Shown here: piece by piece, positions 3,973-55,276 of the stretch
Layout: each line of letters starts with the position of its first letter
Numbering within the stretch: the first letter of the stretch is position 1
Made by a program: the position numbers and the translations under genes
Source of the DNA: a virus
Taxonomy: Duplodnaviria > Caudoviricetes
DNA length: 64,000 nt
IMG/VR virus record: IMGVR_UViG_3300048802_000015
Location: 1 to 64,000 of that record
Reading direction: 5' to 3' (one strand)
Notes under the pieces: model-generated
Told to the model about the DNA's origin: nothing
The model's database searches: none
Seen by the model: only the letters and a program-made list of their open reading frames with translations

Positions 3973-5389
3973 CTCGTTCCCCCATTTCATTGAAGTGCCT
4001 CGGCGGCTCTTTGGGCTGGCGATCTTCCGTATCAGTGAATTCCATCCGCTCGCGATGCCAGAGCACGGGAGCGAAGCCGCGCCGCCCGCCTGTGTTCTTG
4101 GCGATGATCCACTTTGCTTCTTCGGGCTGGAATAAGATGGGCGTGCCCGCTGGCGGCTTCAAGTGCTGCTCGCGCCACGGGAACATGATCACTTGCGCGG
4201 CGGCTTCAAGTTCGCCCGAGTCGCGAAGATCTGCCATCGTTGGCTCTCCACCGCGTTCAAGCACCTTGCGGTTGAGCTGCGCTAGCGCCATGACCGGGAT
4301 CCGCAGTTCCTTGGCCAGCGCCTTGAGCCCTTGGGCCATCTTGGCGATCTCTCGGTTTCGGTTCTCACTCTTTTCGTCGGATTGAATCAGGCCAAGATAG
4401 TCGACTACGATCAAGGCAATTGGATTCGGGTCATCTGATTTGTGTGCGCGCGCGCATTTCGCAAACCAGCGATGGGCCTCCCCGATGATCTTGTTCGTCG
4501 ACATCGGGCGGTCATCCACCCATAGCGGCCAGTCCCAAATCTGTTTGGCAGCTGCCTGCACACGATCCCAATCGTCAACGCGAACCTTCCCGGTATAGAG
4601 GTCGGTCGCTGACACGCGCGAACGCATGGACAAGATGCGCTCGATAACTTCTTGCCGATCCATTTCAAGGCTGACGACGTAGCATGGAACACGGTTCAGG
4701 GCATTGTGGGCGAGAATCCCAATGGCGCTCGCGGTTTTCCCCATGCTCGGCAACCCACCTACGACCACGAAATGCCCGCGACGAAAACCTCCTGTGATTT
4801 CGTCCACAGCCTCGATACCCGTGCGAATGACGTGTTCCTTCTTCCTGTCTGCGCGGCTTTCGATTTCATCTAGGGCAGTATCTACGAGGTCACATACGCG
4901 CATTGGCCCGGTGCTGTTCGAGCTGACCTCAAGAGCTGCAACGCCGTTGCGCACGTCCGCCAGAACATCGTCCACCTCACCCATGGAGTAGGCTCTTGAT
5001 TCCGTTTCCACACACAGGGCTATCAGCCTGCGAAGCGTTGCCATCTTGCGAACCTGTGAAGCGTAGCTGCCTATTGATTCAGGTATCACGGCCGATCTTG
5101 CCACTCCGATGAACCATTCGGTTTGGTCCTCGAATCGCCCAGCAGTTCCGCGCGCTCGTATTTCGTCCTGCACAGAAACGACGTTGACCGGAGCACCGCG
5201 CTTTTGAAGTGCTCGAATGGCCTCCCAGGCTTCGCAGTGGCACGGAAAATAGAAGTCCGCTGCCACCATGTCGGTCAGACTAGCGAGGCACTCAGGCGCA
5301 GCTACGAGCACGGTTCCAAGCACAGCCCGCTCGGCCGCTTCGCTGTGTGGTGGTTTCTTCTCGGTGTCCACGGCTACGCCTTGTTCCAA
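3965..5389 (-). CDS. dnaB: Replicative DNA helicase DnaB
   Basis: PPHSEAAERAVLG N-terminus, Walker A GLPSMGKT, SLEM, VVDYLGL, LAQLNR, DLRDSGELE and IIAKN motifs. Confidence 0.95.
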   Translation of the reverse strand: MEQGVAVDTEKKPPHSEAAERAVLGTVLVAAPECLASLTDMVAADFYFPCHCEAWEAIRALQKRGAPVNVVSVQDEIRARGTAGRFEDQTEWFIGVARSAVIPESIGSYASQVRKMATLRRLIALCVETESRAYSMGEVDDVLADVRNGVAALEVSSNSTGPMRVCDLVDTALDEIESRADRKKEHVIRTGIEAVDEITGGFRRGHFVVVGGLPSMGKTASAIGILAHNALNRVPCYVVSLEMDRQEVIERILSMRSRVSATDLYTGKVRVDDWDRVQAAAKQIWDWPLWVDDRPMSTNKIIGEAHRWFAKCARAHKSDDPNPIALIVVDYLGLIQSDEKSENRNREIAKMAQGLKALAKELRIPVMALAQLNRKVLERGGEPTMADLRDSGELEAAAQVIMFPWREQHLKPPAGTPILFQPEEAKWIIAKNTGGRRGFAPVLWHRERMEFTDTEDRQPKEPPRHFNEMGERDV

Positions 5390-9525: not shown

Positions 9526-10841
9526 ACTCCCCGGCGTGGATACTGCCTGCTTTAGCTGGCAGAGGAAACGCCGTCCGGTTGCTACGATGGTTGACTTTAC
9601 ACGCGCACAGCGTATCCTGCAAGCGTGCCGTTGCGAGGATTCAAATACCGTTTCTACCCGACCGCCGAGCAAGAGGTCTTGCTCCGCAGGACCATCGGGT
9701 GCTGTCGTCTCGTCTACAATCGCGCCCTGCACGAACGCAGCGAGGCGTGGACGTCGGGGAAGAAGTCCATCGGGTACGCGGCCCAAAGCTCCGCCCTCAC
9801 CGGCTGGAAGAAAGAGCCCGAGCTTGCGTTCCTTAACGAGGTTTCGAGCGTTCCTATCCAGCAGGCCTTGCGCCACCTGCAAACCGGCTACGCCAACTTC
9901 TTCGCCAAGCGGGCCAAGTATCCCAGCTTCAAGAAGAAGCGCTCGGGCGGTTCGGCAGAGTTCACCCGCAGTGGGTTCCGCTTCGCCGAGGGCAAGCTGA
10001 CATTGGCCAAGATGGATGCCCCACTCGACATCCGATGGAGCCGCCCACTGCCCGCCGGTGTGCAGCCATCGAGCGCCTCGGTGTCGCTGGACGCTTCCCA
10101 GCGCTGGCACGTGTCCCTGCTCTGCGAAGACCGCACCATCAAGCACCTGTCCAAGCTCAAGACCGCCGTCGGGATAGACCTCGGCATCAACGCCTTGGCC
10201 ACGCTCTCTACTGGCGAGAAGATTCCCAACCTCCAGCACGACGCCCGAGAGATGAAGCGCAAGCGTCGCCTCTCCCGCGCGATGGCCCGCAAACAGAAAG
10301 GATCCAAAAACCGAAACAAGGCTCGCATCAAGCTCGCTCGTCTGCACGCCAAGGTGGCCGACCGTCGCCGCGACCAAATGCACAAACTCTCTACTCGACT
10401 CGTTCGCGAGAACCAAGTGATCGTCGTCGAGGATTTGAACGTCGCTGGAATGGTCCGCAACCACTGCCTCGCCCGAGTTATCTCGGACGCCGCTTGGCGC
10501 ATGCTCCTGACATTCTTGGCGTACAAGTGCGCCTGGTATGGCCGGGAGTTGGTGAAAGTCGACCGCTTCTACCCCAGCAGCAAGACATGCTCCGCTTGTG
10601 GTCACGTCGTCGAGCACCTGCCCCTCGACGTGCGCAAGTGGACTTGCCCATGCTGCAATGCAGAACACGACCGAGACGAGAATGCAGCTCGCAACATTTT
10701 GGCCGCGGGACTCGCGGTTTCTGTCTCTGGATCTGGTGTTAGCCATCGTGTCCTTCGGGGTGCGGTGCAGTCAGAGTTGAAAGAGAAATACTCGGTTGTG
10801 AAGCCGGGAATCCGCCTCCTTTAGGGGGCGGAGGATGTCAA
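9526..10841 (+). mobile_element. TnpB-only IS200/IS605-family element 1
   Basis: Left-end hairpin CTGCCTGCTTTAGCTGGCAG; right-end hairpin CCGCCTCCTTTAGGGGGCGG followed by ...GATGTCAA; no tnpA. Left boundary +/-1 nt. Confidence 0.8.
9625..10824 (+). CDS. tnpB: TnpB RNA-guided nuclease 1
   Basis: FKYRFYPT HTH N-terminus, RuvC residues GIDLG / VVEDL / DRDENAA, zinc finger CSAC..CPCC. Confidence 0.92.
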   Translation: MPLRGFKYRFYPTAEQEVLLRRTIGCCRLVYNRALHERSEAWTSGKKSIGYAAQSSALTGWKKEPELAFLNEVSSVPIQQALRHLQTGYANFFAKRAKYPSFKKKRSGGSAEFTRSGFRFAEGKLTLAKMDAPLDIRWSRPLPAGVQPSSASVSLDASQRWHVSLLCEDRTIKHLSKLKTAVGIDLGINALATLSTGEKIPNLQHDAREMKRKRRLSRAMARKQKGSKNRNKARIKLARLHAKVADRRRDQMHKLSTRLVRENQVIVVEDLNVAGMVRNHCLARVISDAAWRMLLTFLAYKCAWYGRELVKVDRFYPSSKTCSACGHVVEHLPLDVRKWTCPCCNAEHDRDENAARNILAAGLAVSVSGSGVSHRVLRGAVQSELKEKYSVVKPGIRLL

Positions 10842-12032: not shown

Positions 12033-13270
12033 ATCCTCGGCGTGGAAGCCGCCCCCTTTAGGAGGCGGAGGAAACGCCGTCCGGTTCTGGGTTGCTTTTC
12101 TTGCCTTAGAGCTGTAGTGTCTAAGCAGTGAAACTCGTAGCCGTTGCAAAGCTTCTGCCCACGCACGAGCAAGCCGCCGCTCTGCTGGCGACGCTTGAGC
12201 GTGTGAATGAGGCGTGCGCATGGCTGGCCGAGCGAGCTTTCGAGTTGAAGTCCGCAGACAAGCTCAAGCTGCAAGGGCTCTACTACCGAGACCTCCGCGA
12301 GAAATTCGGGTTGTCGTCGCAGATGGCCGTGCGAGCGATCTCCAAGGTGGTCGAGGCGTACAAGCGCGACCGCGCCCGCAAGCCCACCTTCAAGCCCCAC
12401 GGGGCCATCGCCTACGACCAGCGCATCTTGAGTTTCAAGGCGATGGACCGCGTATCGCTGCTGACCATCTCGGGCCGCATTCTCGTTCCCTACGTCGCCG
12501 GCCCCTACCACCTCGCGCGACTCGAAGGCGTGCGCGGCCAGTCCGACCTTGTGCTCCGCAAGGGAAAGTGGTTCCTCTTCGTGACCGTCGAGGTACCCGA
12601 CGGTTCCCCTATCGACCCTGAAGGCTGGCTTGGTGTCGACCTTGGAATCCGCAACCTCGCAGTCGACTCCGATGGCGAGGCCCACAGCGGCGCGGCCGTC
12701 GAGGCCACGCGCCAGCGACACCAGCGCCTGCGCAACATGCTTCAACCCGTCGGCACCAAGTCGGCAAAGCGACACCTCAAGAAACTCTCGGGCAAGGAGG
12801 CCCGCTTCCGCTCCCACACCAACCACGTGATCTCGAAGCAAATCGTCGCCAAGGCCAAAGGCACCGCGAGAGGAATAGCCGTTGAGGAATTGACGGGTAT
12901 TCGCGAGCGGGCAACGGTCAGAAAAAGCCAAAGGGCGATGCATTCGGGATGGGCGTTCTTTCAGTTGCGTGCGTTCCTCAGCTACAAGGCCGCCATCGCT
13001 GGCGTCAAGCTCGTGGCCGTGGATCCGCGCAACACCTCTCGGACTTGCCCAGCGTGCGGCTACATCGACAAGGCCAACCGCAAGAGCCAGTCCGAGTTCG
13101 CTTGCAAGTCGTGCGGGTTCGTCGACCATGCCGACCACGTCGGTGCGGTCAACATCGCACGCAGGGCTGCTGTAATGCAGCCTATCGTCTCGGACTATCG
13201 TGATGGAAAGCATTGCTTGTCCGTCTCTGTTCAGGGGCAAAGCTGCCTGCTTTAGCTGGCAGTCCATTAC
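12033..13270 (+). mobile_element. TnpB-only IS200/IS605-family element 2
   Basis: Left-end hairpin CCGCCCCCTTTAGGAGGCGG; right-end hairpin CTGCCTGCTTTAGCTGGCAG followed by TCCATTAC; no tnpA. Boundaries +/-1 nt. Confidence 0.78.
12128..13255 (+). CDS. tnpB: TnpB RNA-guided nuclease 2
   Basis: RuvC residues GVDLG / AVEEL / HADHVGA; zinc finger CPAC..CKSC. Confidence 0.9.
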   Translation: MKLVAVAKLLPTHEQAAALLATLERVNEACAWLAERAFELKSADKLKLQGLYYRDLREKFGLSSQMAVRAISKVVEAYKRDRARKPTFKPHGAIAYDQRILSFKAMDRVSLLTISGRILVPYVAGPYHLARLEGVRGQSDLVLRKGKWFLFVTVEVPDGSPIDPEGWLGVDLGIRNLAVDSDGEAHSGAAVEATRQRHQRLRNMLQPVGTKSAKRHLKKLSGKEARFRSHTNHVISKQIVAKAKGTARGIAVEELTGIRERATVRKSQRAMHSGWAFFQLRAFLSYKAAIAGVKLVAVDPRNTSRTCPACGYIDKANRKSQSEFACKSCGFVDHADHVGAVNIARRAAVMQPIVSDYRDGKHCLSVSVQGQSCLL

Positions 13271-52365: not shown

Positions 52366-52614
52366 TCAGGCGCCGACCTCCTCTAGCTTCACCCCCTGCG
52401 CTCGCAGGGCCTTGATATCGTACCCGTGGCTGGAGATCGTCTTGCCCTTGGGCAGCGTGTAGTTGGAACCACCGCGGGCAATCTGCGCCGTCTCCTGCAC
52501 GAGGAACTTCTGCTCCTTGTTCGGGTCGCGAGCTGCGGGCGCACTGTGCCCCTGCTCGTCGTTTCGCGGCTGCTGATTGTTGCCTTGGTTCCGGTTCTGC
52601 TGCTCGTTCGCCAT
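52366..52614 (-). CDS. Small hypothetical head-module protein
   Basis: AAGGAG RBS; Gln/Asn-rich N-terminus. Confidence 0.6.
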   Translation of the reverse strand: MANEQQNRNQGNNQQPRNDEQGHSAPAARDPNKEQKFLVQETAQIARGGSNYTLPKGKTISSHGYDIKALRAQGVKLEEVGA

Positions 52615-52629
52615 GACGTTCTCCTTCAT

Positions 52630-52977
52630 TCCACGATGTGGAAAAGTAGACCAAAAGGGAGTCAGAGTGGGTCAGGACCAACGACCGAAGTCGAGGTCCT
52701 TACCATAGCGCTGACGCGGCTAGGAGCGTACACCACAAGACTACCCTTTTGGCGTCGCAAACATGAGCGGGTAGGGCCGAAGCCCGCCGTCAACGTGAGC
52801 GACAATGGCAGACCGAAGTCTGCCGCAAGGTCGGAACGAGTCCGACCAGTAATCGAAGGTCCGAAGACCGACGATATCAGTCCAACCGAAGTCGGACAGA
52901 ACTTGCGCACGTGTTCCCGGCGTGAAGCGCCGAAAGCCTGGTGTCGATTGGGCGAGACCATTGTGCTGCTCTGTAGC
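52630..52977 (-). ncRNA. Candidate large structured RNA downstream of an HNH gene
   Basis: Five cUUCGg-capped hairpins plus nested long-range helices; G-U pairs indicate the minus strand; no ORF. Confidence 0.75.
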
Positions 52978-53820
52978 CTATGCCCCGCTACAGGCCGCTG
53001 TCAAGTTCGACATAGCCACCTGCTCCGAAAGCCCACGAATGGCTACCGGGTCAAATACCCAGCGCGTACTACCGATCCTCTTGGCGTACTCGGCAAACTC
53101 TTCGATGGTCCTGGACTTCTTGCTTGAGTTGCAACGTCGGCAGGCCGGGGCGAGGTTGTCTACCGTATCCACACCGCCCCGAATTTTGGGAGTAAGGTGC
53201 TCGATTTCCAGCGTAATCGCATCTCCGGCGGATCCGCAGAAGACGCACTTCGACCCATAGGCCTCGACCAGTGTAAGCCATCCTCGAACCAGTACGGGAA
53301 TCTCCTGTAATTCGCGTTCACCATAGACCCGCCGTCCCAATCGCAGCATCTCGCGGATCCGGTAGGTTACGCGCTTGCGGTCGCGACGCATGTACTCCCG
53401 ATGCCGCTTCTTGGACTTCTCCGTAGCACGCCCGCGCTTACATGCCGCTCGATACTTCTCGGTCTTCTGGTAACGGTGCTGGGACTCAAGAAGACGGTCC
53501 GGATGTTCCGCTGCATAGCGTTTCCAGTGCGCCCGTGCCATTTCCTTTGCCTTCTCTGGGTTCTCTTTGGCCCATCTATCTAAACGAGCGCGCATCTTGC
53601 GCCGTCGTTCCGGGTTGGTCGCATAGTGCTTGTGGTCGGCGGCCTTCTTTTTCTCCGGGTTTTTCTTCTGCCATTCGACAGCAGCGATCTTCGCGCAGTC
53701 TTTACAGTAGGCCGCCCATCCGTGCGCGTTCCTGCTCTTTGAACGGTAGAAGGACTCGCCGAGAACCTTTTCTATCTTGCAACGAGCGCACCGTCGTTTG
53801 TCCGTGGGCTCTAGATCCAT
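52978..53820 (-). CDS. HNH endonuclease with N-terminal zinc finger and basic helical repeats
   Basis: CARC..CKDC; W..(K/E)NPEK repeats; CVFC..EIEHLTP..GG..NLAPACRRCNSSK. Confidence 0.85.
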   Translation of the reverse strand: MDLEPTDKRRCARCKIEKVLGESFYRSKSRNAHGWAAYCKDCAKIAAVEWQKKNPEKKKAADHKHYATNPERRRKMRARLDRWAKENPEKAKEMARAHWKRYAAEHPDRLLESQHRYQKTEKYRAACKRGRATEKSKKRHREYMRRDRKRVTYRIREMLRLGRRVYGERELQEIPVLVRGWLTLVEAYGSKCVFCGSAGDAITLEIEHLTPKIRGGVDTVDNLAPACRRCNSSKKSRTIEEFAEYAKRIGSTRWVFDPVAIRGLSEQVAMSNLTAACSGA

Positions 53821-53854
53821 GTGCATACAATAGCGCCTATAGCTGCCAACGAAC

Positions 53855-53887
53855 AAGAAAAAGCCCCGCCGAAACGGGGCCTTTCTT
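53855..53887 (-). terminator. Rho-independent terminator after the major capsid gene
   Basis: GCCCCG-TTTCGG-CGGGGC stem followed by TTTTTCTT. Confidence 0.85.
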
Positions 53888-53911: not shown

Positions 53912-55276
53912 CTATGCGCCATGGACGCACACGGAGCTTCTTTTGAAGGCCGCCGGGCTGCTCGTGGCGGTCGCATCGGTCGGGATCGCCCAGTCGCCGG
54001 ACATCGACCAAGCGGCCGAGGTCGTCTGCTGGAGGCGGTCCAGAGGGGCGCGGAGGATGAGGCGGATCCGCTCGGTCATGATCTGCATGCCGCCGTTGAC
54101 GACCGAGAACTCCCCGATCTTGCCTTGCACGCCAGCTTCCGAGATGTACTTCGACTCGTCGAGGAACTTCTCCTCGATGGCGCCCTGGCCAGTGACGATC
54201 GGGCGGTGCAGAACCACGCCCGCCGGGTTCGTGGTCTCGAACGCCGTGGTGAAGCCGTCCAGCGGGTCTTCGATCACCGTCGCGACCGTGGGGCACTCGC
54301 TGTTGCGGTAGAAGGTCGCGCCCAGCAAGAACGCGATGGCGAACTTGCGGTAGTGGATGTAGTCGGGCATCGACTGGTTGAGCCGCTGGAACTCGTTGTC
54401 ACCGAAGATCTGCGACTGCGAGATCGGGTCGAGGTGATAGTGGTACGTCCCGTCCTCGTGGGTCGGCACGTTGTCGAATTGGAGCTGGGCGAGCTGGGCC
54501 CGGATGTCGGCCATCCGGAACTGATCGGTCGAGGCCACGTCGTCGACGCGGGTGCCGCCGCCCGAGTAGAGGATCTGCGAGCGGTTGACAGCCAGCACCG
54601 CCTGCCGGTCCAGGGTCGTCACGTTCGCGGTGAGGGTCAGGGTGCCGCTGTGGATCTCGTCGCCTGCGATGTCAGAGGTGAAGCCCGTGCAGGTGTACGC
54701 CACACCGTTGACCGTGATGGCGAGCGGGTTGGAAGCGCTGACGATGGTCGGCCGCCCGTTGAACAGCTTGCGAGTGAAGCCCGCAAGGTTCTTGACCGGC
54801 ATTGCCGTTCCGGGACCGTAGGCGCCGTTGGCGACCGTGTTCCCCGCGACGTAGCAGTTGTAGAGCTTGTCGCGCACGGTGCGGTTGATCGACTGGCCCG
54901 CGTGCACGCCGAGCTGGTGCATGTTGCGCAGGTACTGCGAGGCCAGCGTCACGTAGCTGGTGGGCATGTGGGTATCGATCGCGCGGCCAAACTGCTGCGC
55001 CGTCGCTTCCCACTGTTCGATCGGGTACTGCACCGTGGGCACTTCCTTGCTCGGGTCGAGCGGCCTCGTGGAAGGTTGGATCAGCCCCGCACGGGTGAAC
55101 GTCTGGTTCGCGCCCAAGTTCACCGGCCAGAGCTCCGCCACGGCTTCGAGCCGGAAGAGCAGGCGCGGGAACAGAGGGTCGCGGAAAGTCCGTTGCAGCG
55201 TTCGGTCCTGGATGGCCGAGACGACGCCAGCGTTGAAACTGGTGTTGACGATTGAACCGTCGGGGAAGTTTGCCAT
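53912..55276 (-). CDS. Major capsid protein
   Basis: 454 aa after the scaffold; very high GC3; QLAQLQFDNVPTHEDGTYHYHLDP; strong RBS and a terminator. Confidence 0.85.
   Translation of the reverse strand: MANFPDGSIVNTSFNAGVVSAIQDRTLQRTFRDPLFPRLLFRLEAVAELWPVNLGANQTFTRAGLIQPSTRPLDPSKEVPTVQYPIEQWEATAQQFGRAIDTHMPTSYVTLASQYLRNMHQLGVHAGQSINRTVRDKLYNCYVAGNTVANGAYGPGTAMPVKNLAGFTRKLFNGRPTIVSASNPLAITVNGVAYTCTGFTSDIAGDEIHSGTLTLTANVTTLDRQAVLAVNRSQILYSGGGTRVDDVASTDQFRMADIRAQLAQLQFDNVPTHEDGTYHYHLDPISQSQIFGDNEFQRLNQSMPDYIHYRKFAIAFLLGATFYRNSECPTVATVIEDPLDGFTTAFETTNPAGVVLHRPIVTGQGAIEEKFLDESKYISEAGVQGKIGEFSVVNGGMQIMTERIRLILRAPLDRLQQTTSAAWSMSGDWAIPTDATATSSPAAFKRSSVCVHGA

Follow-up and report, generated by a model that had tools for sequence, protein, structure and literature searches.

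An apparently new structured RNA family at the capsid/head-completion boundary of uncultured phages, and a predicted homing endonuclease cassette beside it

The window analysed here is a 64,000-nt stretch that forms part of the 81.9-kb genome of an uncultured phage, and it was compared with related phage loci that carry L-labels (L001, L028, L188 and so on). The head module lies on the minus strand in the order scaffold, capsid gene, terminator, HNH gene, RNA-like stretch, 82-aa gene and 137-aa gene, and the module features below are all on that strand. The major capsid protein gene (53912-55276) matches PHROG 1357. The intrinsic terminator that the earlier note placed 3' of this gene is present (53855-53885, confirmed at 53858-53885); it is missing in close relatives without the HNH gene and belongs to the HNH cassette. 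The HNH gene (52978-53820, 280 aa) is confirmed by matches to Pfam HNH (E 1e-9) and phrog_1035 (E 1e-23). Its putative promoter (53827-53856; -10 hexamer at 53832-53827, 6 nt 5' of the ATG) falls below the promoter-scan threshold and has identical spacing in L028, L029, L030 and L044; the HNH mRNA is putatively leaderless, as for many genes of this phage family. Genes that appear leaderless, with a -10-like hexamer 6-8 nt before the ATG and no SD, were seen in L012, L021, L046, L169, L174 and L177 as well as at 53832-53820 of the window.

The last codons of the HNH gene contain a predicted sigma70-type promoter (52975-53004), made up of TTGACA at 53004-52999, an 18-nt spacer and TAGGCT at 52980-52975. 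This layout is common to loci with an HNH gene (L028, L029, L030, L043 and L044) and without one (L008, L017, L018, L019, L040, L050 and L060). From the promoter spacing and a U-rich tract we place the ends of a structured RNA of about 325 nt at 52642-52968. The earlier note had called this stretch ORF-free, but a frame of 99 codons with an ATG start (52961-52662) spans it. The small conserved head-region gene that follows (52366-52614) encodes an 82-aa protein with a weak likeness to the lambda gpFI C-terminal / DUF7210 / L9-N-GINS-B small beta fold (score 0.82), with Z < 4 throughout the fold search; the likeness is to a conserved 45-aa beta domain, and in deep branches (L174, L177, L178, L181) the gene appears, by eye, to have an additional N-terminal HeH/Rho-N-like helix pair. 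The interval between the capsid gene and the 82-aa gene is an insertion hotspot with extra genes (L017, L018, L019, L021, L022, L040, L060, L169), among them tRNA-like genes in L040 and similar copies of an alanine-rich gene of about 120 aa in L018 (reversed), L021 and L169.

The capsids of the nearest cultured phages, Kromp and Raharianne, are merely 30-35% identical to that of the window, and the RNA is absent from both. Among GTDB genomes the sole match was a contig in a Myxococcales bin with a capsid 52% identical, which gives a weak hint of the host. Nucleotides 1-80 and the last 80 nt of the genome both lie in one GC-rich short repeat, so that circular permutation, with a break at the repeat, is probable. 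The window also contains two TnpB genes (IS200/IS605 OrfB, Cas12f-like) at 9625-10824 and 12128-13255, on the plus strand and thus opposite to most phage genes; by protein similarity, these are the OMEGA-type candidates in this genome. An Fe/Mn superoxide-dismutase C-terminal domain fused to a Peptidase_Mx-like domain is encoded at L182:9219-10703 (genome 71219-72703).

The HNH protein has an N-terminal CxxC..CxxC finger, a basic NPE(K/R)-repeat helix, which is the Lys/Arg-rich helix recognised in the earlier note, and a nuclease domain with a second CxxC pair. The residues H208, N222 and N231 and four CxxC motifs are invariant in 10 homologues, leaving an HNH/HNN active site with its zinc ligands intact, and the layout of zinc finger, long basic helix and HNH is common in phages (192 records). 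An intact HNH gene lies directly upstream of the RNA in just 6 of the approximately 32 loci that carry the RNA (the window, L028, L029, L030, L043 and L044); about 25 of the 32 have no intact adjacent HNH gene, L007 holding a truncated relic and L022 an HNH gene that is 1 kb and several genes away from the RNA. Relatives of the gene are found between other genes, with no RNA behind them, in L001, the P0006 contig, Riptide, Baka and Raharianne. Related genes or relics occupy three other sites in the head module (L001:8415-9038, L036:3701-3910, L022:4121-4438 and L007:2203-2328), among them a fragment where the 137-aa gene begins in L036 and the truncated copy in L007.

Comparison of loci with and without the HNH gene reveals the borders of the inserted block. 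The RNA core of the window is 92-95% identical to that of the HNH-free L001, but the first 56 nt of the RNA are only 55% identical; these 56 nt are 71% identical to those of the HNH-bearing L029, while the L029 core is 88-92% identical to that of the HNH-free L004. L028, with the HNH gene, and L188, without it, agree at 98 of 98 nt in the RNA core and at 80 of 85 nt in the capsid gene, but at only 14 of the final 27 capsid nucleotides; they do not share the 5' domain, and the divergence reaches RNA nucleotide ~56. Between the window and L001, identity of the capsid gene drops from 92% to 78% in the final 105 nt. These identity patterns indicate that one cassette landed on different RNA cores. 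The mobile cassette shown by these comparisons consists of the capsid-gene tail, the terminator, the HNH gene, a new promoter and a replacement for the 5' 56 nt of the RNA. Since it brings both a promoter and an RNA 5' domain, the RNA would stay transcribed after insertion. The block is intergenic, optional among close relatives and bordered like a homing co-conversion tract, which is the pattern of intronless homing (PMC2988022, PMC13565253), and the homing target probably lies close to the final ~27 nt of the capsid gene. We therefore regard the HNH gene, with high confidence, as a free-standing homing endonuclease, an assignment made by comparison in which the cutting itself is predicted.

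The earlier note had proposed instead that the HNH gene and the RNA together form a ribonucleoprotein, that is, an RNA-guided or RNA-dependent nuclease. The adjacency of the two in 6 loci, the inclusion of the first 56 nt of the RNA in the cassette and the basic helix of the protein would fit such a system, but we now consider it extremely improbable, as most RNA copies have no HNH gene beside them and RNA cores are identical with and without it. Homologous HNH genes without the RNA, which the note had named as evidence against its own proposal, were found in part, several HNH relatives being RNA-free, and the converse holds for the roughly 25 HNH-free RNAs. A RuvC-type domain was not found in the protein, for which Pfam and PHROGs give HNH families only, and PDB matches to IscB and Cas9 are limited to the HNH region (profile positions 175-245, or from 128 for two Cas9 chains). 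The 5' segment of the RNA was considered as a guide and rejected, with no guide-like match or target in the genome or the related loci. The OMEGA proteins IscB and IsrB with their omega-RNA (HEARO) likewise place an HNH domain beside a structured RNA of ~300 nt (PMC13565253), but the present locus differs in having no RuvC-like domain, in having its RNA 3' rather than 5' of the gene, and in the lack of obligate linkage or co-inheritance, of a guide and of a HEARO match. The locus is not a new programmable nuclease, and the HNH gene is an ordinary one.

The RNA itself is well supported. All five cUUCGg hairpins reported in the earlier note (plus-strand 52685, 52777, 52813, 52861 and 52886) are there, each closing at least 4 bp, and they make up 5 of the 7 minus-strand cUUCGg stems in the whole 81.9 kb. 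Folding energy compared with shuffled sequences gives z -4.2 for the minus strand and z -4.4 for the plus strand; because the plus strand folds equally, energy alone does not give the strand, and the minus-strand assignment, which stands, comes from the UUCG caps, the promoter and G-U intermediates. The proposed GGUCGGA/UCCGACC hairpin (52847-52829) was paired in 70 of 70 cells with 11 double changes among 10 homologues. The four nested long-range helices fared worse in the same 10 homologues, pairing in 28/40, 25/60, 58/70 and 49/60 cells with 0, 4, 0 and 1 double changes, and the first of them (ACAAUGG/CCAUUGU) failed a permutation test (P 0.43). A helix that had escaped the first reading, 52753-52744 with 52659-52650, pairs in 87 of 90 cells with 34 double changes (9 bp tested; 10 homologues).

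Searches with the capsid and neck genes gave about 45 distinct syntenic loci, and the RNA was found at the capsid/head-completion boundary in ~32 related phages with capsid identity down to ~52%, and its place and direction are constant. In phages that are HNH-free there, the capsid stop is followed directly by the 3' 300 nt of the stretch (94% identity in L001, 91.5% in L003 and 78% in L004). Among nine close copies, compensatory changes were seen in 41 of 86 predicted pairs. A covariance model built from 12 copies found 7 unseen divergent copies, every one at the syntenic site; a second round had 25 hits, L188 was added later, and the copies in L011, L014, L019, L020, L022 and L173 were recognised by eye from their architecture. 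In the second-round alignment, which was fitted to the model, 46 of 48 core pairs covary and 92% of cells pair, against 32-43% in slid controls. RNA-core identity tracks that of the capsid (Mantel rho 0.45, P 4e-4). The RNA is missing from at least a dozen relatives, the deepest branches included. At the same site L039 has a shorter promoter-led structured element (4440-4600) with a long closing helix and no match to the model, which may be a reduced or an unrelated RNA.

No copies were found away from the capsid boundary, and pattern scans of IMG/VR DNA for conserved motifs of the RNA, which require exact matches and could be escaped by distant copies, gave only family members or chance matches. 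Rfam had no hit in the window at E up to 10, HEARO included, and no relevant match in the window plus 8 divergent homologous loci (ROOL, GOLLD, manA and others stayed below the gathering threshold). The earlier failure to match tmRNA, RNase P or SRP was borne out by Rfam, and ARAGORN found no tRNA or tmRNA. BLAST of the RNA against annotated phages gave no match, and no description was found in the literature covered, most subscription papers lying outside that coverage. The family is new with respect to Rfam and this literature; the more than 10,000 candidate viral RNAs of PMC10690425 lie outside the sequence comparison. With covariation among homologues and no Rfam match, the suggestion of a functional, uncatalogued RNA on the minus strand holds up, and the element downstream of the HNH gene is almost certainly a structured RNA that is inherited vertically and represents a new family.

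From 5' to 3' the RNA is composed of variable UUCG-capped hairpins, a domain A, a domain B stacked directly on A, and a U-tract. In the window the variable 5' domain, defined by comparison of homologues, covers 56 nt (52906-52961) and begins at a conserved start codon. Four local hairpins with UUCG-type caps, supported by covariation, follow at 52807-52905 (52897-52880, 52875-52852, 52847-52829 and 52824-52807), and their number varies within the family. Domain A (52754-52803), a long hairpin of irregular pairing, has conserved internal loops and is capped by UUCG; in its helices 1 and 2 double changes affect 15 of 17 pairs. Domain B (52650-52753), likewise drawn from covariation, has a closing helix, a three-way junction with a pseudoknot, and a UUCG hairpin (52699-52675). 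The closing helix is GC-rich and 89% paired, and 14 of its 14 pairs covary. The small H-type pseudoknot pairs 52728-52726 with 52717-52715, with a 3-nt loop 1 and a stem at 52722-52719; its topology, in which 3-4 nt reach over a 3-nt linker to pair with the next hairpin's loop, is found in 29 of 29 rows in several different sequences (one G-U pair is needed in three rows), and 0 of 20000 permutations reached the observed pairing. Right after the closing helix comes the U-rich tract (52642-52649, 5 of 8 U). A tract of 4-8 U in 8 nt is present in 23 of the 25 model hits and is weak in the subgroup of the window, and in L019, L022 and L060 it is degenerate and an ordinary hairpin terminator is appended. 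An alternative RNA-only fold, of riboswitch or antiterminator type, is not conserved, the alternative partners changing from copy to copy, and any gate must therefore be external.

This anatomy also bears on whether the RNA could be a ribozyme or intron relic, possibly one once mobilised with the HNH gene. Its size, its pseudoknot, the adjacent homing endonuclease and the decayed HNH gene in L007 are reminiscent of such a relic, but no ribozyme or intron in Rfam matches even at E up to 10. Neither the P3/P7 topology of group I nor a domain V was found, and no gene is interrupted, the flanking genes being intact; the fold that covaries is a string of hairpins with two local domains. Invariant unpaired nucleotides are few across the family, and the core follows the capsid gene and not the HNH gene. 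We consider this origin very improbable.

In many phages a few bases, and no terminator, separate the capsid stop from the start of the RNA, and in others the RNA is preceded by a promoter of the form TTGAC-17/18-xAxxxT. It would thus be expressed in two ways, as a trailer at the 3' end of the capsid transcript or from a promoter of its own. In 9 of 12 close homologues the internal frame opens 56 nt ahead of the core, and in the others tabulated 57-59 nt ahead of it, with an ATG or, in L004, with a GTG at the same place, even though the segment from start codon to core is the least conserved part of the RNA, with only 47-71% identity between subgroups. The frame is open for 92-99 codons in 12 of 12 complete close copies and ends inside domain B; L188, a close relative of L028 and L029 that was fetched after this prediction, fits it. 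Deletions of a whole hairpin (21 nt) and of 3 nt preserve the frame, and in L030, with one compensated and one uncompensated frameshift, it is still open. Of 263 derived states none put a stop into the frame, where 5.5 were expected; the other frames acquired 4 and 3 stops (P 0.004; 0.04 after calibration).

Distant promoter-led copies have an ATG within a few bases of the inferred start, like the leaderless genes of the family, and SD-like sequences (-2.4 to -10 kcal/mol) precede the start where the RNA follows the capsid gene. In 9 of 9 ATG-led lineages the frame reaches domain B (product P about 1e-3, with the criterion chosen post hoc), and with all starts counted it does so in 11 of 14 (P 0.02); in L005, L008, L014 and L051 no first start codon opens a frame that reaches domain B. 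The ATG of promoter-led copies is near +1, and for several of them a 5' hairpin is predicted to bury the AUG. On balance we lean slightly towards the view that the frame is maintained for translation. Fusion of the frame to the 82-aa gene was rejected, since neither the stops nor the frames agree and no slippery site is present, and so was recoding of the capsid C-terminus, since a terminator and other genes often lie between the capsid stop and the RNA.

One reading of a maintained frame, a small-protein gene whose product is a peptide of 92-99 aa and whose mRNA has become structured secondarily, would explain the conserved start, SD-like sites and open frame, and gene callers mark it as a gene in L070, L075 and a further contig. 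The composition argues otherwise: GC is flat over the codon positions (GC1=GC2=GC3 about 0.6), the coding score is negative, and there is neither codon bias nor third-position bias (53/54/63%). Substitutions follow the base pairs, and both frame and stop position differ in distant members of the family. The peptide looks unselected, and there is little chance that it is the product that matters.

The role that we favour for the RNA, to which we give slightly less than an even chance, is that of a leaky transcription stop with a stable RNA end, at which read-through is promoted by a coupled ribosome. The pseudoknotted 3' domain, the GC-rich closing helix and the U's behind it would act as a large, branched intrinsic terminator of this late-gene unit, yielding a nuclease-resistant RNA end and metered read-through into the neck and tail genes. 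The internal open frame would be the gate. A ribosome that loads at the 5' start codon and trails RNA polymerase would cover the 5' strand of the closing helix and so allow read-through; with no coupled ribosome, the 3' domain would fold and the RNA would be released. The 3' end of the RNA has the arrangement of an intrinsic terminator, a GC-rich helix followed directly by a U-tract. The terminator model is favoured because most copies have this U-tract after the closing helix and those in which it is degenerate have an appended terminator. The constant position and orientation, the kept start codon and the zero derived stops support it too, and it uses most of the anatomy of the RNA. On the other side, the pseudoknot and domain A exceed the needs of a terminator, the separate terminators of L019, L022 and L060 are beyond the reach of the ORF, and at least a dozen relatives manage without the RNA. 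The starts of L005, L008, L014 and L051, the frameshift in L030, the buried AUGs and the weak U-tract in the subgroup of the window also speak against it.

A second reading is that the RNA is a stand-alone, abundant late non-coding RNA that works in trans, as a scaffold, as a decoy for a protein or the ribosome, or as a helper of the virion or of packaging. The U-tract would then only form the 3' end, the site next to the capsid gene would only give high late expression, and the frame would be incidental or protect the nascent RNA. L019, L022 and L060 have their own promoter and their own terminator; the 82-aa gene, usually the next after the RNA, is separated from it by two genes in L060 and is missing in L044; the tertiary motifs are conserved; and the RNA is dispensable in relatives. 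ROOL and GOLLD belong to this kind of abundant phage RNA (PMC12286853). For the copies with promoter and terminator of their own, and for the elaborate tertiary motifs, action in trans is a better explanation than a leaky terminator. Nevertheless, the RNA was never found off this gene boundary, no co-occurring partner gene was seen among the genes examined, and the kept start codon and open frame go unexplained, so that we rate this reading as possible and rather doubtful.

Antitermination in cis was also considered. The put RNA of phage HK022 is a cis-acting antitermination RNA that binds RNA polymerase, and the domains of the present RNA might likewise bind the polymerase and make it processive through the neck and tail operon. 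The RNA does lie upstream of ~25 kb of co-oriented virion genes, often right behind a promoter and with a U-rich site after it, but ordinary terminators stand directly behind it in three loci, it is several-fold larger than put, and it is missing from many relatives with the same operon. This role is improbable and, like the small protein, the ribozyme or intron relic and the HNH ribonucleoprotein, it is less likely than a terminator or an RNA acting in trans. The leaky terminator and the stand-alone RNA may both hold. More speculatively, and with a rather low likelihood, the locus could be a ribosome-gated RNA gene, in which the first polymerase-coupled ribosome, on a frame of ~100 codons indifferent to its peptide, chooses between read-through and a stable pseudoknotted RNA, and in which the released RNA has a further, trans-acting role in the assembly of the head or in packaging, for instance together with the gpFI-like neighbour protein.

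Among known systems, the leaky terminator has parallels in the intrinsic terminators after capsid genes, in leader-peptide attenuators and in the lambda pR'-6S-tR' unit. The RNA shares with these a GC-rich helix and U-tract at a boundary where expression must drop, a promoter-RNA-stop layout, and an upstream frame that could couple translation to termination. It differs in that its 'loop' is a pseudoknotted three-way junction of ~85 nt, and in having no regulatory codons, no conserved antiterminator fold and an ORF of ~100 codons. If the frame is functional, translation and termination would be coupled here in a form where a long frame is retained to let the ribosome pass, not to make a peptide, and where a whole folded domain is the terminator. 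The pseudoknot resembles the acceptor arm of the TYMV tRNA-like structure, a compact H-type pseudoknot, in its 3-4 bp stem, 3-nt loop 1, 4-5 bp stem and short loop 3; here, however, it is set in a three-way junction, with no CCA end and no tRNA-like arms.

ROOL and GOLLD are likewise phage-encoded, pseudoknotted and dispensable, and GOLLD, too, combines a conserved 3' part with a variable 5' part (PMC12286853). The RNA described here is about half their size or less, has one small pseudoknot and an internal open frame, has a fixed place, after the capsid gene rather than close to tRNA islands, and matches none of their Rfam models. It is a new family inside known kinds, those of complex phage RNAs and of terminator or attenuator leaders. 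As an RNA family of ~200-350 nt that is supported by covariation and has a universal pseudoknot, it joins the few complex phage RNAs listed so far. Its place is between the capsid and neck genes of a family of uncultured myoviruses, one relative having been found in a Myxococcales bin. The HNH gene, for its part, is like the free-standing phage homing endonucleases of the T4 seg/mob type (PMC2988022, PMC12724721, PMC13565253) in being intergenic and optional among close relatives, in having co-converted flanks in conserved neighbours, and in occurring at several sites and in one decayed copy. It is known here by sequence comparison, with cleavage predicted, and it differs from those enzymes in that its tract appears to end within an RNA gene and to provide this gene with a promoter and a 5' domain. 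The locus is also a clear natural example of a homing endonuclease mending its own disruption with a new promoter and 5' end for its neighbour.
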